From assembly GCF_003019035.1 (NCBI RefSeq), contig NZ_CP027447.1: a stretch of DNA of 64,000 nucleotides; one strand, 5' to 3'. A model generated the notes under the pieces. That model worked only from the letters and a program-made list of their open reading frames with translations. It searched no databases and was not told the DNA's origin. The position numbers and the translations under genes were made by a program. Of this stretch, positions 3,766 to 63,034 are shown one piece after another; position 1 is the stretch's first letter; the number at the start of each line of letters is the position of its first letter. Source of the stretch: Escherichia coli (GTDB taxonomy: Bacteria > Pseudomonadota > Gammaproteobacteria > Enterobacterales > Enterobacteriaceae).

Positions 3766-4737
3766 ATGAGTAAGATTTTTGAAGATAACTCGCTGACTAT
3801 CGGTCACACGCCGCTGGTTCGCCTGAATCGCATCGGTAACGGACGCATTCTGGCGAAGGTGGAATCTCGTAACCCCAGCTTCAGCGTTAAGTGCCGTATC
3901 GGTGCCAACATGATTTGGGATGCCGAAAAGCGCGGCGTGCTGAAACCAGGCGTTGAACTGGTTGAACCAACCAGCGGTAATACCGGGATTGCACTGGCCT
4001 ATGTCGCTGCCGCTCGCGGTTACAAACTTACCCTGACCATGCCAGAAACCATGAGTATTGAACGCCGCAAGCTGCTGAAAGCGTTAGGTGCAAACCTGGT
4101 GCTGACCGAAGGTGCTAAAGGCATGAAAGGCGCAATCCAAAAAGCAGAAGAAATTGTCGCCAGCAATCCAGAGAAATACCTGCTGCTGCAACAATTCAGC
4201 AATCCGGCAAACCCTGAAATTCACGAAAAAACCACCGGTCCGGAGATCTGGGAAGATACCGACGGTCAGGTTGATGTATTTATTGCTGGCGTTGGGACTG
4301 GCGGTACGCTGACTGGCGTCAGCCGCTACATTAAAGGCACCAAAGGCAAGACCGATCTTATCTCTGTCGCCGTTGAGCCAACCGATTCTCCAGTTATCGC
4401 CCAGGCGCTGGCAGGTGAAGAGATTAAACCTGGCCCGCATAAAATTCAGGGTATTGGCGCTGGTTTTATCCCGGCTAACCTCGATCTCAAGCTGGTCGAC
4501 AAAGTCATTGGCATCACCAATGAAGAAGCCATTTCTACCGCACGTCGTCTGATGGAAGAAGAAGGTATTCTTGCTGGTATCTCTTCTGGAGCAGCTGTTG
4601 CCGCGGCGTTGAAACTACAAGAAGATGAAAGCTTTACCAACAAGAATATTGTGGTTATTCTACCATCATCGGGTGAGCGTTATTTAAGCACCGCATTGTT
4701 TGCCGATCTCTTCACTGAGAAAGAACTGCAACAGTAA
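3766..4737 (+). CDS. cysK: Cysteine synthase A (O-acetylserine sulfhydrylase A)
   Basis: 323-aa [27 protein letters not shown]...; PLP-fold motifs SVKCRIG and GNTGIALA. Confidence 0.95.
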
Positions 4738-9069: not shown

Positions 9070-9981
9070 TTAAATCCCCGCCCCCTGGCTAAAATGCTCT
9101 TCCCCAAACACCCCGGTAGAAAGGTAGCGATCGCCACGATCGCAGATGATCGCCACCACCACCGCGCCAGGGTTAGCTTTTGCCACTCGCAGTGCACCAG
9201 CAACCGCGCCGCCGGAGCTAACGCCACAGAAAATCCCTTCCCGCGCCGCCAGTTCGCGCATAGTGTTTTCCGCATCGCGCTGATGAATATCCAGCACCTC
9301 ATCCACCAGAGAAGCGTTGAAAATTCCCGGCAGATATTCCGCAGGCCAGCGGCGAATGCCTGGAATACTGCTGCCTTCTTCCGGCTGCAGGCCAACAATC
9401 GTCACCGGTTTGGATTGTTCGCGCATAAAGCGTGACACGCCGGTGATAGTGCCGGTTGTTCCCATGCTGGAGACAAAATGGGTAATGCGCCCGCCAGTCT
9501 GCTGCCAGATTTCCGGCCCGGTGGTGGTGTAATGGGCGAAGGGATTATCAGGATTATTGAACTGATCGAGCAGCTTTCCTTCACCACGATTGGCCATCTC
9601 CAGCGCCAGATCGCGCGCACCTTCCATGCCCTGCTCTTTGGTGACCAGAATCAGTTCCGCACCGTAGGCACGCATTGCCGCACGGCGTTCCTGGCTCATG
9701 TTGTCGGGCATCAGCAATTTCATGCGATAGCCTTTAAGCGCGGCAATCATTGCCAGCGCAATGCCGGTGTTACCACTGGTGGCTTCGATCAACACATCAC
9801 CCGGTTTAATCTCGCCGCGCTTTTCCGCCTCGACAATCATCGAAAGCGCTGCACGGTCTTTTACCGATCCCGCCGGGTTATTGCCTTCCAGTTTTAACCA
9901 CACTTCACTGCCGTTATCCGGCCCCATTCGCTGCAACTTCACCAGAGGCGTATTGCCAATTGTTTGTTCTAATGTACTCAC
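9070..9981 (-). CDS. cysM: Cysteine synthase B (O-acetylserine sulfhydrylase B)
   Basis: ORF track 9070..10059(-) trimmed to GTG start (V)STLEQTIGNTPLVKLQRMGPDNGSEVWLKLEGNNPAGSVKDR; 303 aa. Confidence 0.9.
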   Translation of the reverse strand: MSTLEQTIGNTPLVKLQRMGPDNGSEVWLKLEGNNPAGSVKDRAALSMIVEAEKRGEIKPGDVLIEATSGNTGIALAMIAALKGYRMKLLMPDNMSQERRAAMRAYGAELILVTKEQGMEGARDLALEMANRGEGKLLDQFNNPDNPFAHYTTTGPEIWQQTGGRITHFVSSMGTTGTITGVSRFMREQSKPVTIVGLQPEEGSSIPGIRRWPAEYLPGIFNASLVDEVLDIHQRDAENTMRELAAREGIFCGVSSGGAVAGALRVAKANPGAVVVAIICDRGDRYLSTGVFGEEHFSQGAGI

Positions 9982-12910: not shown

Positions 12911-13926
12911 CAGTTACGCCCCGCCGCTAACAGCTTGTCTAACTCGCCGCCGCTGGTGAAGTGGGTTTTCATCACTTCCGGCCAGGAGCCAAATTTGTCT
13001 TCCACGCGGAACAGTTCGGTCTGCGGGAATTTGTCTTTCAGTTTGTCCATCACCTCCGGGTTATTTACGCGGTAGTAATAGTCGGTGATGATGGTTTGCG
13101 CCTGCGGGCTGTAGAGCCAGTTCAGGTAAGCTTTTGCTGCTTTTTCCGTACCGTTGGCCTGCACGTTTTTATCGACCCACGCCACCGGGAATTCCGCCAG
13201 AATATTGGTTTTCGGAATCACCACTTCAAAGCCCTGCGCTTCATACTGTTTGCGGATGTTGTTCACTTCCGACTCGAAGCTGATCAGCACATCGCCCAGG
13301 CCGCGCTCGGCAAAAGTGGTGGTCGCGCCACGACCGCCAGTATCGAACACTTCAACGTTTTTCAGGAACTGGGTCATAAACTGTTCGGTTTTGGCTTTGT
13401 CGCCACCGTCAGCTTTATCCGCTGCGCCCCATGCCGCCAGATAGGTATAACGCGCGTTACCGGAGGTTTTTGGGTTCGGGAAAATCAGCTTCACGTCGGA
13501 GCGCACCAGATCGTTCCAGTCATGGATATTCTTCGGGTTGCCCTTACGCACCAGGAAGCCCATGGTGGAGTAAAACGGCGAGCTGTTATTCGGCAGGCGC
13601 GACTGCCAGTCAGCCGGGATCAGCTTGCCTTTATCATGCAGGATCTGCACATCGGTCACCTGGTTATAAGTGACAACGTCCGCTTTTAAGCCCTGTAAAA
13701 TCGCCAGCGCCTGTTTTGATGACCCGGCATGAGATTGTTTAATCGTCAGTTTGTCGCCGCCGTTATCTTTGGCCCATTGCTGTTCAAACGGCGGGTTCAG
13801 GGCGGCAAACAGCTCGCGGGAGACGTCATAAGAACTGTTCAGCAGTTCCGTTGCCTGTACATGGCCCGCCAGCAGCAGAGAAGCGACCAGCGCGAGTGAG
13901 TTCTTTTTCAGTAAGTTAACGGCCAT
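12910..13926 (-). CDS. cysP: Thiosulfate-binding periplasmic protein CysP
   Basis: 338-aa ORF with signal peptide [25 protein letters not shown]. Confidence 0.9.
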
Positions 13927-26476: not shown

Positions 26477-27364
26477 TTATCGGGTCATGTTGATGCCGGA
26501 TGCTTTCTGCTCCAGCATACGTTTCGCCAAATCCACAATGACGGCTGCGGCTTCAACCGGCGGCGTGCCGCCCTGGTGAATGTTAGAGATACAGGTGCGA
26601 TCGGCCTCAACGGTGGTTGCCATACGCGGCGAGTAAACGGCGTAGCAGGAGAGGCTTTCTGACTGCCCCAACCCCGGACGTTCGCCCACCAGCAGGATCA
26701 CCACTTTCGCGCCGAGGATCTCACCGATCTGATCTTCAATCTTCACGCGACCATAACGAACAAAGAATGGCGTGCCGACTTTCAGCCCGGCCTGTTTCAG
26801 GCCCGCCATCAGCGGCGGCAGGATCTCTTCGTAGTTCACGGTGATCGCATCAGTTGACAGGCCATCAGAAATAACGACCTGTACGTCCGGATTAGCAACA
26901 CACTGTGCTTTCAGCGCTTCAACAGCTTCAGCACACAGGCGGCGGCCCATATCCGGACGAGTCAGGTAGAGATTTTTGTCGCTGATTTCGGAGCGGACTT
27001 CCAGCAAGCCCTGCGCTTTCACCCACTCTTCCGGTACTTCTTTCAGAACGGTATCTTTCGAACGAGAGTGATCGGCCAGGAAACGCAGCAACGCCTGGGT
27101 GCGCGGACGCGGACCGGCACGACCGGTACAAACGCGGGCCACGGTGCTGCGACGCAGTTCTGTTAACACATCCGCACGATGTGGGTTTTCAACACCAATC
27201 CACGCTTTTGCTTCCGCAGAACCTAAATCCAGCGCGCAGCTTTCCGAGGTCACCGGTGCCGCACAGGTGGTGGTGGCGCACTTTGCTTCTGACGGCGCGG
27301 GGGCCGCTTGTCCCATTGACGCCATCACGCTGCGTACAATTTCTTCAATCTGTTTTTGATCCAT
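26477..27364 (-). CDS. eutC: Ethanolamine ammonia-lyase small subunit
   Basis: 295-aa [22 protein letters not shown]... Confidence 0.9.
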
Positions 27365-31384: not shown

Positions 31385-31437
31385 CGCCTTTACTCCCTGT
31401 TAGTTGTTATTTATTGCCAATGCTGAAAGTGGGTTTT

Positions 31438-31556
31438 TCCCTCACTCTGGAAGCCGAGGGGCCGGGGTGAGGGTAATTGTTTGCACCGGCGCGACTCTGT
31501 TCCCCTCACCCTAACCCTCTCCCCAAAGGGGCGAGGGGACTGTCCGTACACTTTTA
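31438..31556. repeat. Composite GC-rich palindromic intergenic repeat (possibly Box C-type) in the eutH-eutG spacer
   Basis: Inverted repeat ccctcac...gtgaggg (31438-31472) followed by tgttcccctcaccctaaccctctccccaaaggggcgaggggactgtccgtacactttt; a second copy of the latter lies at 46998-47055. Confidence 0.7.
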
Positions 31557-39400: not shown

Positions 39401-40471
39401 ATGAAAATTCACTACCTTGTCACCACCCTCGAAGCGGGAGGCGCTGAATTTGCGATTCCTGATATTGTGACTACTCTGCAAGACCTTGGTCATGAGGTGA
39501 AAATTTATGTCTGTGAACCCCGCGATATGGGAGCAGCGCCTCGTCTGGAAGCCGCTGGATTATCCTGGTGTTTATTATCAAATCGGCGGCGTTCTGAACC
39601 CATGCTTGTAGCTGCTTATCTGGCAAAAATCATTCACGACAAACCCGATCTCATCTGGACTTCGTTAAGTTGGGGGACTCGTATTGGGCAATGGGTCGGC
39701 CGGCTTATGGGCATTCCTGTTATCAGTTTTAAACATAGCGCCAGCGTAAAACCAGCGACCTGGCGTATGCGCAACATGTCTCGTTTATGGATAGGAGATT
39801 CTGAAACCGTAGCTCAATACCTGCATGAAACCATGTTGATCCCGAAGCAACAAGTGCTGTGCTGGCCCTTTTTTCAGGCGAATCCGCAAGCTGCCCAAGC
39901 GCAAAACTGGGACGGGAAATCAGTTTTACAATTAGGCTCTGTTGGACGCCTGCATGAAGTTAAAAATTACGCTGGATTAATTACAGCACTCGCTTCGTTT
40001 GTAGATAAAAACCCGCAATTGCGCTCGCGAATCCGATTAACCATTCTCGGTGAAGGGCCTGAACAGGAAGCATTGCAAAAAACCATAACGCAACACGCGT
40101 TGGAGGATGTGGTTTGTTTAGCGGGTTTTTCTGCGGATGTCGAAAATTTTCTTGCCGGATTACATGTCTACATCCAGACCTCCCGCTACGAAGGGATGTG
40201 CCTCGCTGCACACGAAGCCATGAATGCAGGGCTTGCAATCATCACGACTCCTGTAGGCGAACTTAAAGAATCGGTAATAGATGGTCATACTGGATATACG
40301 CTTAATGGCGAGCTAACGCCAGCGCTGGAGGGTGTGCTTAACCGTATTTTAAGTGAACCCGAAGAATTAGAACGCTATGGGCAAAATGTGCGGCAGTATG
40401 TATTAGCGAAGTTCAGCCATGAAAATTTTGTCCAGTCTGCAATCAACATCGTCAATAGACTTATTCACTGA
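39401..40471 (+). CDS. Glycosyltransferase family 1 (GT-B fold, GT4-like) protein; accessory gene
   Basis: 356-aa ORF; C-terminal region RYEGMCLAAHEAMNAGLAIITTPVGELKESVIDGHTGY resembles the retaining GT1/GT4 sugar-donor binding motif; to my recollection K-12 has no gene between eutS and maeB. Confidence 0.7.
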   Translation: MKIHYLVTTLEAGGAEFAIPDIVTTLQDLGHEVKIYVCEPRDMGAAPRLEAAGLSWCLLSNRRRSEPMLVAAYLAKIIHDKPDLIWTSLSWGTRIGQWVGRLMGIPVISFKHSASVKPATWRMRNMSRLWIGDSETVAQYLHETMLIPKQQVLCWPFFQANPQAAQAQNWDGKSVLQLGSVGRLHEVKNYAGLITALASFVDKNPQLRSRIRLTILGEGPEQEALQKTITQHALEDVVCLAGFSADVENFLAGLHVYIQTSRYEGMCLAAHEAMNAGLAIITTPVGELKESVIDGHTGYTLNGELTPALEGVLNRILSEPEELERYGQNVRQYVLAKFSHENFVQSAINIVNRLIH

Positions 40472-40484
40472 ACAAGGCAGAAAA

Positions 40485-41387
40485 ATGAATTGCTATACCA
40501 CCGATCTTTGGCAGATAGGCATTGTTCAGGCCCCCATACAGCACATTGTTGCTTCTGGCAGTTTGGATGGCTTCAGGATTAAATGGATTACCCCGGATAA
40601 ATCACTCACTTTTCTTGCCGATCCTTTCGGTCTGTGGAAAAAAGGGGTTCTCTATCTTTTCGCGGAATCCTACGATTATCGGACTCGTCGTGGCGATATT
40701 ATCGCTTATAAGCTCAATGCTGACCTGGACGTCATTGAGCAACGAACTGTGCTACAAGAACCCTGGCATCTTTCTTATCCTTTTGTGTTTGAAGCCGATA
40801 ACGAAATCTGGATGTTACCTGAAGGATATAAATCAGGTACGCTAACGTTGTACCGCGCTATAGAGTTTCCCTGGCGATGGGAAAAGGTGCCAGATTTTTC
40901 ATTCCCTTGCGCTGCCATTGATGCCACCCCCTTTTACGCACAAGGAAAATGGTGGATGTTTTATACTCCCCCACTACCAAAGGCAGCCAGGACGGATACG
41001 TTAATGCTCGCTCATGCCCCCCATTTTATGGGGCCATGGGAAAACGTCCTGCAAACTGCCGCGCACAGGAATAAAAGCGGCGCGCGTATGGGCGGAACAC
41101 CATTTGATCATGATGGGCAAATTTTCTTACCAACACAAGATTGCAGCCGAACCTACGGTGGCGCATTGCAGATGCTGACACTAGACCCACAACGTTTATT
41201 AACTCCAGAATTTGCTGCCTCTGTGCGCCTGGAAGTGCCTGCAAGTGCCGCGCCTTTTATTGCTGGCATGCATACGCTTTCTGGCGTTGGCGACGTAACA
41301 TTCATTGATGCCAAGCGACACCTTAAAGGTTCGCCTCAGCGATTATGGGTGGATTTGCAGCGGCGGATACAGAAGTGGATCAGCTAA
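40485..41387 (+). CDS. Hypothetical protein, possibly beta-propeller glycoside-hydrolase-like; co-transcribed with the upstream glycosyltransferase
   Basis: ORF track 40419..41387 trimmed to ATG 40485 (MNCYTTDLWQIGIV...), 13 bp after the GT stop with aagg RBS; DPFG..W and aromatic-rich repeats (WHLSYPFVFEADNEIWMLPEGY, KWWMFYTPP); family assignment unverified. Confidence 0.55.
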   Translation: MNCYTTDLWQIGIVQAPIQHIVASGSLDGFRIKWITPDKSLTFLADPFGLWKKGVLYLFAESYDYRTRRGDIIAYKLNADLDVIEQRTVLQEPWHLSYPFVFEADNEIWMLPEGYKSGTLTLYRAIEFPWRWEKVPDFSFPCAAIDATPFYAQGKWWMFYTPPLPKAARTDTLMLAHAPHFMGPWENVLQTAAHRNKSGARMGGTPFDHDGQIFLPTQDCSRTYGGALQMLTLDPQRLLTPEFAASVRLEVPASAAPFIAGMHTLSGVGDVTFIDAKRHLKGSPQRLWVDLQRRIQKWIS

Positions 41388-44972: not shown

Positions 44973-46976
44973 ATGTCCCGAAAAGACCTTGCCAATGCGA
45001 TTCGCGCACTCAGTATGGATGCGGTGCAAAAAGCCAATTCTGGTCATCCCGGCGCGCCGATGGGCATGGCCGATATTGCCGAAGTGCTGTGGAACGATTT
45101 TCTTAAACATAACCCTACCGACCCAACCTGGTATGATCGCGACCGCTTTATTCTTTCCAACGGTCACGCGTCGATGCTGCTCTACAGTTTGCTGCATCTG
45201 ACCGGTTACGACCTGCCGCTGGAAGAACTGAAGAACTTCCGTCAGTTGCATTCGAAAACCCCAGGCCACCCGGAAATCGGCTATACGCCTGGTGTTGAAA
45301 CCACCACCGGTCCACTTGGACAAGGTTTGGCGAACGCCGTCGGGCTGGCGATAGCAGAGCGTACGCTGGCGGCGCAGTTTAACCAGCCAGATCATGAAAT
45401 TGTCGATCACTTCACCTATGTGTTTATGGGCGACGGCTGCCTGATGGAAGGTATTTCCCACGAAGTCTGTTCGCTGGCGGGCACGCTGGGACTGGGCAAG
45501 CTGATTGGTTTTTACGATCACAACGGTATTTCCATCGACGGTGAAACCGAAGGCTGGTTTACCGACGATACAGCAAAACGTTTTGAAGCCTATCACTGGC
45601 ATGTGATCCACGAGATCGACGGTCACGATCCGCAGGCGGTGAAGGAAGCGATCCTTGAAGCGCAAAGCGTGAAAGATAAGCCGTCGCTGATTATCTGCCG
45701 TACGGTGATTGGCTTTGGTTCGCCGAATAAAGCAGGTAAGGAAGAGGCGCACGGCGCACCACTGGGGGAAGAAGAAGTGGCGCTGGCACGGCAAAAACTG
45801 GGCTGGCACCATCCGCCATTTGAGATCCCTAAAGAGATTTATCACGCCTGGGATGCCCGCGAAAAAGGCGAAAAAGCGCAGCAGAGCTGGAATGAGAAGT
45901 TTGCCGCCTATAAAAAGGCTCATCCGCAACTGGCAGAAGAGTTTACCCGTCGGATGAGCGGTGGTTTACCGAAGGACTGGGAGAAAACGACTCAGAAATA
46001 TATCAATGAGTTGCAGGCGAATCCGGCGAAAATCGCTACCCGTAAGGCTTCGCAAAATACGCTTAACGCTTACGGGCCTATGCTGCCTGAGTTGCTCGGC
46101 GGTTCGGCGGATCTGGCTCCCAGCAACCTGACCATCTGGAAAGGTTCTGTTTCGCTGAAGGAAGATCCGGCGGGCAACTACATTCACTACGGGGTGCGTG
46201 AATTTGGCATGACCGCTATCGCCAACGGCATTGCGCACCACGGCGGCTTTGTGCCGTATACCGCGACGTTCCTGATGTTTGTTGAATACGCCCGTAACGC
46301 CGCGCGGATGGCGGCACTGATGAAAGCGCGGCAGATTATGGTTTATACCCACGACTCAATTGGCCTGGGCGAAGATGGTCCTACGCACCAGGCTGTTGAG
46401 CAACTGGCCAGTCTGCGCTTAACGCCAAATTTCAGCACCTGGCGACCGTGCGATCAGGTGGAAGCAGCGGTGGGCTGGAAGCTGGCGGTTGAGCGCCACA
46501 ACGGACCGACGGCACTGATCCTCTCCAGGCAGAATCTGGCCCAGGTGGAACGTACGCCGGATCAGGTTAAAGAGATTGCTCGTGGCGGTTATGTACTGAA
46601 AGACAGCGGCGGTAAGCCAGATATTATTTTGATTGCCACCGGTTCAGAGATGGAAATCACCCTGCAAGCGGCAGAGAAATTAGCGGGAGAAGGTCGCAAT
46701 GTACGCGTAGTTTCCCTGCCCTCGACCGATATTTTCGACGCCCAGGATGAGGAATATCGGGAGTCGGTGTTGCCTTCAAATGTTTCTGCCCGCGTGGCAG
46801 TAGAAGCGGGTATTGCCGATTACTGGTACAAATATGTTGGTCTGAAAGGGGCAATTGTCGGGATGACAGGTTATGGGGAATCTGCTCCGGCGGATAAGCT
46901 GTTCCCGTTCTTTGGCTTTACCGCCGAGAATATTGTGGCAAAAGCGCATAAGGTACTGGGAGTGAAAGGTGCCTGA
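44973..46976 (+). CDS. tktB: Transketolase 2
   Basis: ORF track 44910..46976 trimmed to [40 protein letters not shown]; 667 aa. Confidence 0.95.
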
Positions 46977-46997
46977 TGGTGATCGCCGGATGCTGTA

Positions 46998-47057
46998 TGT
47001 TCCCCTCACCCTAACCCTCTCCCCAGAGGGGCGAGGGGACGGTCCGTGCGCTTTTTA
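46998..47057. repeat. GC-rich palindromic intergenic repeat (second copy) downstream of tktB
   Basis: tgttcccctcaccctaaccctctccccagaggggcgaggggacggtccgtgcgcttttt; 54/58 identical to 31498-31555, same orientation. Confidence 0.7.
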
Positions 47058-47078
47058 GGGGCGCATCTGGGATTTTGT

Positions 47079-48122
47079 TTAACGGGTGATCCACAACGTG
47101 GGCCAGGCGTCTGGCCCATGCCAGTTATCGCAGGTGGGTTCTGCGGCGTAACGCACCAGGCGAAAACGCTGACCGTCAAAGCGCCAACGCGCCTGAATGC
47201 CACAATCGCTTAATCCGCGCCCTTTCGCTAAGGTCACCAGTTCACGCGATTTCTCATCAAATGTTGCGTTCATCAGTTCCAGTTCATTCGTCTCCTGACC
47301 GTTGTTGAACGGCAAACGCAACCGAACCGGGCGCGAGGCTAGCGGCTTTTTACGCGACACAATCCATGCCAAATCAATGGTGTTATAGGCCCCTGCCTCA
47401 CAGCTAATCATCATCAGTGCTTTATCATCGGTCAGCGCAGTGACATTCACCTCACGACGTAACGGATCAAGCGAGCAGCGCAGACCATTCATCCGCCAGT
47501 TTCCATAATCCAGCAAATCGTTGCGTTCTTCGAGTGAGAGTGGCGTCGGCGTTGGGTTAACCACCGCGACCTCTTTCAGCGCAGGCGCAGGCGGTACGCT
47601 GAGCGGCGGTTCGTCCCCTTTCTTTATCCACGCGGTTTCACTGCCAACGCGCTTTTGCTGAGCATCAATAAACAACAACGCCGCTTTTAAGCCATTCAGA
47701 GAAATGGTCTGATTGCCATCGCGTAAGGTGATTGCCTTCCCTTCCTGAATCAGCTGCAAAAACGCGGTGATGGTTGCCGTATCATCGGTTACTAGTAACC
47801 ATGGTGAAATCCGCCACTTGTCACCACTTAACGCCAACGGCTCACCATCTAACAGCAGCCGTGGCGCTATCTCCCCTTCAGACGCATCCGGCGACTTCAA
47901 CCCGCCGCGCTCAATACGTAAAACGGCATCGGTATGCGCCCCGGCGCTGCGGCTCAGGGTCATCACCAGTCCATTATGATCGCCCGTATTGCGCGCTACA
48001 CAGAAATTTTGGTTATTACAGGTAACCTGCCAGTCGGAAAACGCCCGTTGCGCTGGTGCCGCCCACACCAAAGACGTCGGCAACAAAGCGAAAAAAAAGA
48101 GAAGGAAAATGCGATAGCGCAT
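47079..48122 (-). CDS. ypfG: DUF1176-family periplasmic protein YpfG
   Basis: 347-aa ORF with signal peptide MRYRIFLLFFFALLPTSLVWAAPAQ. Confidence 0.8.
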   Translation of the reverse strand: MRYRIFLLFFFALLPTSLVWAAPAQRAFSDWQVTCNNQNFCVARNTGDHNGLVMTLSRSAGAHTDAVLRIERGGLKSPDASEGEIAPRLLLDGEPLALSGDKWRISPWLLVTDDTATITAFLQLIQEGKAITLRDGNQTISLNGLKAALLFIDAQQKRVGSETAWIKKGDEPPLSVPPAPALKEVAVVNPTPTPLSLEERNDLLDYGNWRMNGLRCSLDPLRREVNVTALTDDKALMMISCEAGAYNTIDLAWIVSRKKPLASRPVRLRLPFNNGQETNELELMNATFDEKSRELVTLAKGRGLSDCGIQARWRFDGQRFRLVRYAAEPTCDNWHGPDAWPTLWITR

Positions 48123-58314: not shown

Positions 58315-58377
58315 GGCCGGATAAGGCGTTAACGCCGCATCCGGCCATGATGCCTGATACAGTCTTATCAGACCTAC
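58315..58377. repeat. REP element cluster (BIME-like) between ypfN and ypfH
   Basis: ggccggataaggcgttaacgccgcatccggcc followed by tgcctgatacagtcttatcagacctac. Confidence 0.65.
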
Positions 58378-63000: not shown

Positions 63001-63034
63001 GTCGGATGCGGCAAGAACGCCTTATCCGACCTAC
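63001..63034. repeat. REP-like palindromic element upstream of purC
   Basis: gtcggatgcggcaagaacgccttatccgacctac (REP-type). Confidence 0.55.

Follow-up and report, generated by a model that had tools for sequence, protein, structure and literature searches.

To our knowledge, BoxC, a repeat unit of 56 bp, has never been assigned a demonstrated function, and three decades after it was described the family still lacks a functional explanation. Its members are G/C-rich units of about 54-56 bp, dispersed over the intergenic regions of E. coli and often located between convergent genes, whose core combines a single C-rich block with a pair of G-rich ones (CCCTCGCCCC-loop-GGGGAGAGGG-TTA-GGGTGAGGGG). 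In the account given by Holder et al. (PMC4666352), BoxC was first described in the 1990s, was refound by Hoyne and Maher as the PIT (potential intrastrand triplex) element, and is the same as the TMECO motif; the element under its several names is treated in Bergler 1992, Hoyne and Maher 2000 and 2002, Holder et al. 2015 (PMC4666352), and Kaplan et al. 2016 (PMC5100583), the last of whom described the HPG1 sequence as a "G-quadruplex-hairpin-duplex switch." Table 1 of Holder et al. lists 23 TMECO motifs in K-12, and the same study counted 3610 TMECO copies in 262 proteobacterial genomes (PMC4666352); a broad distribution was also reported by Kaplan et al. (PMC5100583). The isolated G-rich strand of family sequences adopts triplex or G-quadruplex structures in vitro, as judged by circular dichroism (CD) and NMR (PMC4666352, PMC5100583), and an in vivo triplex footprint was looked for and not found by Holder et al. 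(PMC4666352). The latter authors also associated TMECO loci with raised local variability, in the category of "intergenic change."

Two other groups of small repeats invite comparison. The REP/BIME elements, like BoxC, are short structured intergenic repeats that are frequent between convergent genes and inside operons, and they form hairpins in 3' untranslated regions (UTRs). Their sequence (GCCGGATG...CATCCGGC) is, however, unrelated to the C/G three-block motif, and they possess an associated transposase (RAYT) and documented mRNA-stabilizing effects, whereas BoxC has neither. MITEs and ERIC/IRU elements share with BoxC a small size, the absence of coding capacity, dispersal, internal palindromy, and variable presence among strains; BoxC differs from them in having no terminal inverted repeats that match an insertion sequence (IS) element, and neither a target-site duplication nor an empty site was seen at the locus described here.

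The repeat under consideration lies in a 64,000-nt stretch of Escherichia coli DNA (the window), where nucleotides 46998-47055 (copy B) had been described in an original prediction as a second copy of a repeat at 31498-31555 (copy A). Direct reading, alignment, and, independently, a repeat finder (its family D3) agree on 54 of 58 identical positions, ungapped and on the same strand, and a 41-nt core pattern allowing up to three mismatches has just these two matches in the window, against 0.00 expected from 100 dinucleotide shuffles. The observation of a repeat pair is thus confirmed as real. Copy B starts 22 nt past the last base of the tktB stop codon (open reading frame end, 46976), inside the 102-bp gap (46977-47078) between the stop codons of tktB and ypfG. 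The gene order is eutH, copy A, eutG...eutS, two glycosyltransferase-like genes, maeB, talA, tktB, copy B, and ypfG, so that the pair brackets, as originally described, eutG through tktB plus a two-gene cassette of 2.1 kb. This cassette (approximately 39401-41387, plus strand, between eutS and maeB) codes for a glycosyltransferase and a "glucosamine inositolphosphorylceramide transferase family" protein, is absent from K-12, and accounts for the extra 2.1 kb. The start-to-start spacing from copy A to copy B is exactly 15,500 nt, and the earlier suspicion that so round a number is a coincidence proved right: it is an accident of the gene content of the lineage, because the two extra genes set the 15.5 kb, as against about 13.4 kb in K-12, which lacks them. 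The region as a whole is 100% identical to that of strain SCU-301 and has a match in all but one of the 5426 complete E. coli genomes (5425). The repeat is unannotated in RefSeq, and the RefSeq copy of MG1655 likewise carries no repeat features at the tktB and eut region or at ten fetched BoxC regions.

Coordinates of the features at the two repeat loci (positions in the window)
Feature	Position	Strand	Remarks
Copy B, extended BoxC repeat	46998-47055	+	58 nt as first read; conservation at the family level about 46998-47051; aligned with ten K-12 copies
36-nt three-block core of copy B, CCCTCGCCCC-TCT-GGGGAGAGGG-TTA-GGGTGAGGGG	47002-47037	- (G-rich strand)	TMECO type A with one mismatch; PIT; HPG1
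T-run TTTTT, taken in the original prediction as a terminator tail	47052-47056	+	Starts 13 nt past the 3' arm (end 47038)
Weak second hairpin UGCGCUUU-UUA-GGGGCGCA, with AUUUUGUUU 7 nt later	47047-47065	+	RNA fold; at best a poor intrinsic terminator
REP-type 5' half-site GCCGGATGC, left of BoxC	46985-46993	+	Common to the REP alleles of other strains (alignment)
Degenerate REP-type 3' half-site GCATCTGGG, right of BoxC	47063-47071	+	Putative; from the fold and likeness to the REP end GCATCCGGC
tktB (transketolase 2), upstream gene	44973-46976	+	Its mRNA would carry the C-rich repeat strand
ypfG (DUF1176), convergent with tktB	47079-48122	-	Open reading frame
Copy A, in the eutH-eutG gap of the eut operon	31498-31555	+	Core 31502-31537 identical to TMECO entries 7, 11, and 15 (PMC4666352, Table 1)
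Degenerate type B BoxC CCCTCACTCTGGAAGCCGAGGGGCCGGGGTGAGGGT, inverted relative to copy A	31439-31474	+	Compared with Table 1 of PMC4666352

Comparison with the published members of the family revealed that the reverse complement of 47002-47037 (CCCTCGCCCCTCTGGGGAGAGGGTTAGGGTGAGGGG) is letter-for-letter identical to TMECO entries 9, 16, 19, and 22 in Table 1 of Holder et al. (PMC4666352). The core of copy B further contains the published HPG1 sequence GGGAGAGGGTTAGGGTGAGGG (PMC5100583) and conforms to the TMECO pattern CCCTCNCCC-N3-6-GGGNGAGGG-N3-GGGNGAGGG (Holder 2015, PMC4666352). Both window copies belong to type A, as their second loop is TTA; in copy B this loop lies within GGGTTAGGG, which also matches HPG1. 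An alignment of ten fetched K-12 type A copies with copies A and B shows that the 5' TGTT and the 3' ACCGTCCGTGCGC of the extended unit of about 56 bp are partly conserved and yields a conserved unit of about 54 nt, TGTTCCCCTCACCCTAACCCTCTCCCCARAGGGGCGAGGGGACCGTCCGTGCGC. The last Ts of the match at copy A (TTTATTGCGCC) recur in the K-12 allele, which has no repeat there, and hence belong to the flank of the locus, so that the unit truly shared is about 54 nt long. Copy B has in common with BoxC/PIT/TMECO type A/HPG1 the identical 36-nt core, the TTA second loop, the intergenic position, the extended consensus of about 54 nt, membership in a multicopy family dispersed chromosome-wide, and presence or absence from strain to strain. 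Structurally there is no difference; the 23 sites listed for K-12 merely include neither tktB-ypfG nor eutH-eutG, owing to the REPs that K-12 has at both. At the eut locus, the degenerate type B element and copy A reproduce the published arrangement of type A and type B as an inverted palindromic pair (PMC4666352). The linker of this pair, AATTGTTTGCACCGGCGCGACTCTG, resembles that of the K-12 fepB-entC BoxC pair and also the inter-unit BIME linker AATTGCACCGCGCCACTG of the alternative eutH-eutG allele. A search of 46700-47400 for Rfam families at an E value of 10 or below returned only subthreshold matches, the best being Antizyme_FSE at 22.3 bits against a cutoff of 40, which is a chance match via the CCCCUCACCC/GGGCGAGGGG stem. 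We consider it very likely that copy B is one resident, ordinary type A copy of the already known BoxC family, and neither a special partner of copy A nor a convincing terminator. It should be annotated as a 58-bp BoxC/PIT/TMECO repeat, and not as a terminator or as the end of a composite structure.

The original prediction was thus right that the second copy is genuine, but it missed that the repeat belongs to a known multicopy family and does not form a two-copy pair. The genome-wide search for copy number that it proposed is the correct check: with a 62-nt query, 84,189 places were recovered across 5425 of the 5426 complete E. coli genomes, with a median of 17 and a maximum of 29 per genome, and two other BoxC queries gave a median of 16, the maxima across queries being 27-29. 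Strain Nissle 1917, which has the BoxC allele, matches these 62 bp without a difference. Plasmids hold 47 of the 84,189 places. Among the 66 pairs that can be formed from the 12 aligned copies, identity over 58 nt ranges from 41 to 54 positions, with a median of 47. A special relationship between copies A and B was considered and rejected; they do rank first, at 54/58, yet by a single position over several pairs at 53/58. In particular, copy B is identical at 53 of 58 positions to the unlinked K-12 copies at fepB-entC, pstA-pstB, and fimH-gntP, from which it follows that A and B are ordinary family members. The likeness of copy B to copy A, 15.5 kb upstream, reflects shared family membership and not a paired structure. 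Six of the ten fetched K-12 copies lie between convergent genes.

As direct repeats, copies A and B might act as a recombination pair that deletes or duplicates the 15.5-kb eutG-tktB segment, a reading favored by their 54/58 identity in direct orientation and by the link between TMECO loci and raised local variability, although the variability described by Holder et al. (PMC4666352) is mostly small intergenic change and not exchange between copies. We constructed the chimeras expected of a deletion (eutH flank-repeat-ypfG flank) and of a duplication (tktB flank-repeat-eutG flank), with a threshold of at least 80% query coverage; neither junction occurs in any of the 5426 complete genomes, every one of which matched the parental halves only. 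Both copies occur together in at most 304 genomes, and 58 bp with four mismatches is a poor RecA substrate. Recombination between the two copies is, on this evidence, exceedingly improbable, and in practice the suggested rearrangement finds no counterpart in the genomes. The reading of the original prediction, that the repeat hairpin and the T-run downstream of it constitute the Rho-independent terminator of the talA-tktB operon, draws on several genuine likenesses: as in intrinsic terminators, a stable G/C-rich RNA hairpin (-21.1 kcal/mol on the plus strand; -26.2 kcal/mol on the minus strand) follows the stop codon, at a distance of 25 nt, a TTTTT lies downstream of it, the site between convergent genes is typical of terminators, and a T-rich stretch recurs after the GCGC in about half of the family copies in the 12-copy alignment. 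This very recurrence, together with the presence of the Ts of copy A in the shared K-12 flank, indicates that the T-run is neither a local adaptation nor specific to the locus. Moreover, the T-run that was said to follow the 3' arm is present (47052-47056) but starts 13 nt away from that arm, the last base of which is 47038, and the geometry of an intrinsic terminator, in which a U-tract begins 0-2 nt after the stem, is absent. A promoter/terminator consensus scan of 46700-47400 recovered nothing, and thus no terminator-like site on either strand. The hairpin folds only modestly better than shuffled sequences (z = -2.1) and the whole tktB-ypfG region no better than these (z = -0.12 and -1.26), with the segment 47044-47082, which includes the weak second hairpin, reaching -11.2 kcal/mol (z = -1.9).

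Evidence from other members of the family points in the same direction. As summarized by Holder et al. (PMC4666352), PIT elements assayed by Hoyne and Maher (2002) had neither promoter nor terminator activity. The curated peak lists in the supplementary files of the K-12 3'-end maps of Adams et al. 2021 (PMC7815308) hold no Term-seq 3' end at the ten queried K-12 BoxC sites, a result to be read with the provisos that weakly expressed genes may give no peak and that K-12 has no BoxC at tktB-ypfG. Transcripts of the well-expressed gene adk read through one such site in K-12, the BoxC at 497843-497878, and end 60 nt past it at 497939/497940, at a separate hairpin plus U-tract. Downstream of frlR, whose BoxC is oriented as at tktB, the maps call a Rho-termination region at 3504972, 80 nt beyond the element (PMC7815308). 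The pstA-pstB copy matches copy B at 53/58 positions, is oriented alike with respect to transcription, and carries a CTTTTT tail, yet it lies inside the pstSCAB-phoU operon, as copy A lies inside the eut operon. An efficient terminator at these positions would be polar on the genes that follow, which argues against termination by the repeat. Judged from these sequence features and from the behavior of homologous copies that are read through or operon internal, the terminator function is unlikely.

Analysis of the alleles at the two loci revealed that BoxC and REP/BIME elements are alternatives there. K-12 has BoxC at neither locus and carries a REP at tktB-ypfG and a BIME array at eutH-eutG, and REP/BIME elements occupy the same two slots in most other strains. 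By identity band, the BoxC allele at tktB-ypfG is found in about 1380 of 5445 records, about a quarter, and the BoxC pair at eutH-eutG is found in 304 genomes (approximately 6%), the others having two to four BIME units. In an alignment of eight tktB-ypfG alleles, every non-BoxC allele examined contains a full REP and, to a variable extent, partial duplications; in the BoxC allele the repeat takes the place of this REP, the left junction falling after GCCGGATGCTG and the right one before ATTTTGTTTAACGGG. Among these eight alleles we saw no empty site, no target-site duplication at the junctions, and no intermediate allele, so that in place of the insertion expected of a MITE the segment presents itself as a REP replacement. 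The alternative alleles span 31419-31555 and 46995-47071 in the window and 13107-13324 and 26650-26725 in the corresponding K-12 stretch (L001), and they are mutually exclusive at both loci. Copy B itself does not contain the REP consensus palindrome and has only short REP-like half-sites at its flanks; when the whole gap is folded to minimum energy, GCCGGAUGC (46985-46993) pairs with GCAUCUGGG (47063-47071), that is, the half-sites on either side of BoxC pair as if the latter sat within a REP palindrome. The polymorphism at eutH-eutG and tktB-ypfG fits the "intergenic change" category of Holder et al. (PMC4666352). The K-12 BoxC at zntA-tusA (L134, 2185-2220) is near fixed, 4571 genomes having a place that covers 80% or more of the query, and is kept even where it is the sole BoxC-like place of the genome, unlike the polymorphic tktB and eut loci. 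An alternation of REP and BoxC as a general rule, which we considered, was rejected, as this near-fixed copy has no REP allele.

The shared slots raise the question of whether BoxC is, or was, a mobile nonautonomous element with REP palindromes as its target, in which case the tktB copy would have arisen by insertion into a resident REP. The mutual exclusion at both window loci, the flanking half-sites that pair in the fold, the REP-like remnants that adjoin the K-12 BoxC copies at adk-hemH, frlR-yhfS, and fimH-gntP, and the occurrence of the same core with lineage-specific flanks in many distant taxa are all consistent with such targeting. Against it stand the eight tktB-ypfG alleles, with their want of a target-site duplication, empty site, or intermediate; the eutH-eutG locus, which is a clean replacement with no REP remnant; and zntA-tusA, with its near-fixed BoxC and no REP alternative. 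Further, given how common REPs are between convergent genes, chance may account for the adjacency, no transposase is known for BoxC, and the family is essentially absent from plasmids. Mobility of this kind is accordingly quite unlikely, and the more specific notion that the two repeats share slots because BoxC inserts into or converts REP palindromes, with the tktB copy as a fossil of such an event, is very unlikely; if it were true, the long-unexplained BoxC family would gain a dispersal mechanism tied to REP biology.

For copy B as an ordinary BoxC copy, a modest role can be conceived. It fills the 102-bp tktB-ypfG gap with its C-rich strand on the sense strand of tktB and, in the present lineage, takes the slot held by a REP in most E. 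coli strains. Its RNA is predicted to form a stable hairpin of about -21 kcal/mol in the 3' UTR of tktB, which might at most act as REPs do, as a barrier to 3'-exonucleases or as a pause site, and not as an efficient intrinsic terminator; this role is only an analogy with REP. Transcription of tktB probably ends further downstream or by way of Rho. Copy B would then be a passenger repeat at tktB-ypfG. The triplex or quadruplex of its G-rich single strand may transiently hinder replication and contribute to the local sequence turnover observed at such sites. The two loci leave the existing knowledge of the BoxC element unchanged, the repeat being real and already known. They do offer clean examples of BoxC versus REP/BIME alternative alleles across thousands of genomes, a natural experiment that can be put to use, since 3'-end formation and mRNA stability lend themselves to comparison by isogenic allele swaps.

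When species-representative genomes were scanned for the exact 23-mer GGGGAGAGGGTTAGGGTGAGGGG, at least 120 stretches (loci L008-L127) were recovered, which, as a broad distribution had previously been reported by Holder et al. and Kaplan et al., is a confirmation and not a discovery. Among the matches listed are Alpha-, Beta-, Gamma-, and "Delta"-proteobacteria, a metagenome-assembled genome (MAG) of Desulfotomaculum, and one archaeal MAG (Methanomicrobiaceae); the MAG matches outside Proteobacteria, including the last, could be binning contamination. The complementary C-block lies just upstream of the 23-mer in 106 of the 123 evaluable occurrences and an inverted partner within 70 nt downstream in 28 occurrences among the matches listed, the flanks being lineage specific. 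In Pseudomonas sp. dw_612, a left flank of about 45 nt (..TTTCAGGTCGATGTAGCTC..ACTCGGTCAGT) is common to at least 29 copies, and the "Deltaproteobacteria" MAG copies are embedded in MITE-like units with the ends TTATTAATGAG.../...CCCATTAATAA. Elsewhere in the window, a pair of inverted REPs at 58315-58343 and 63003-63031 (GGCCGGATAAGGCGTTAACGCCGCATCCG), 86% complementary and 4.7 kb apart, represents ordinary REP copies, and the repeat finder also reported an 89-nt inverted repeat (3910-3998 and 9752-9840) with 75% complementary arms that lie 5.75 kb apart.
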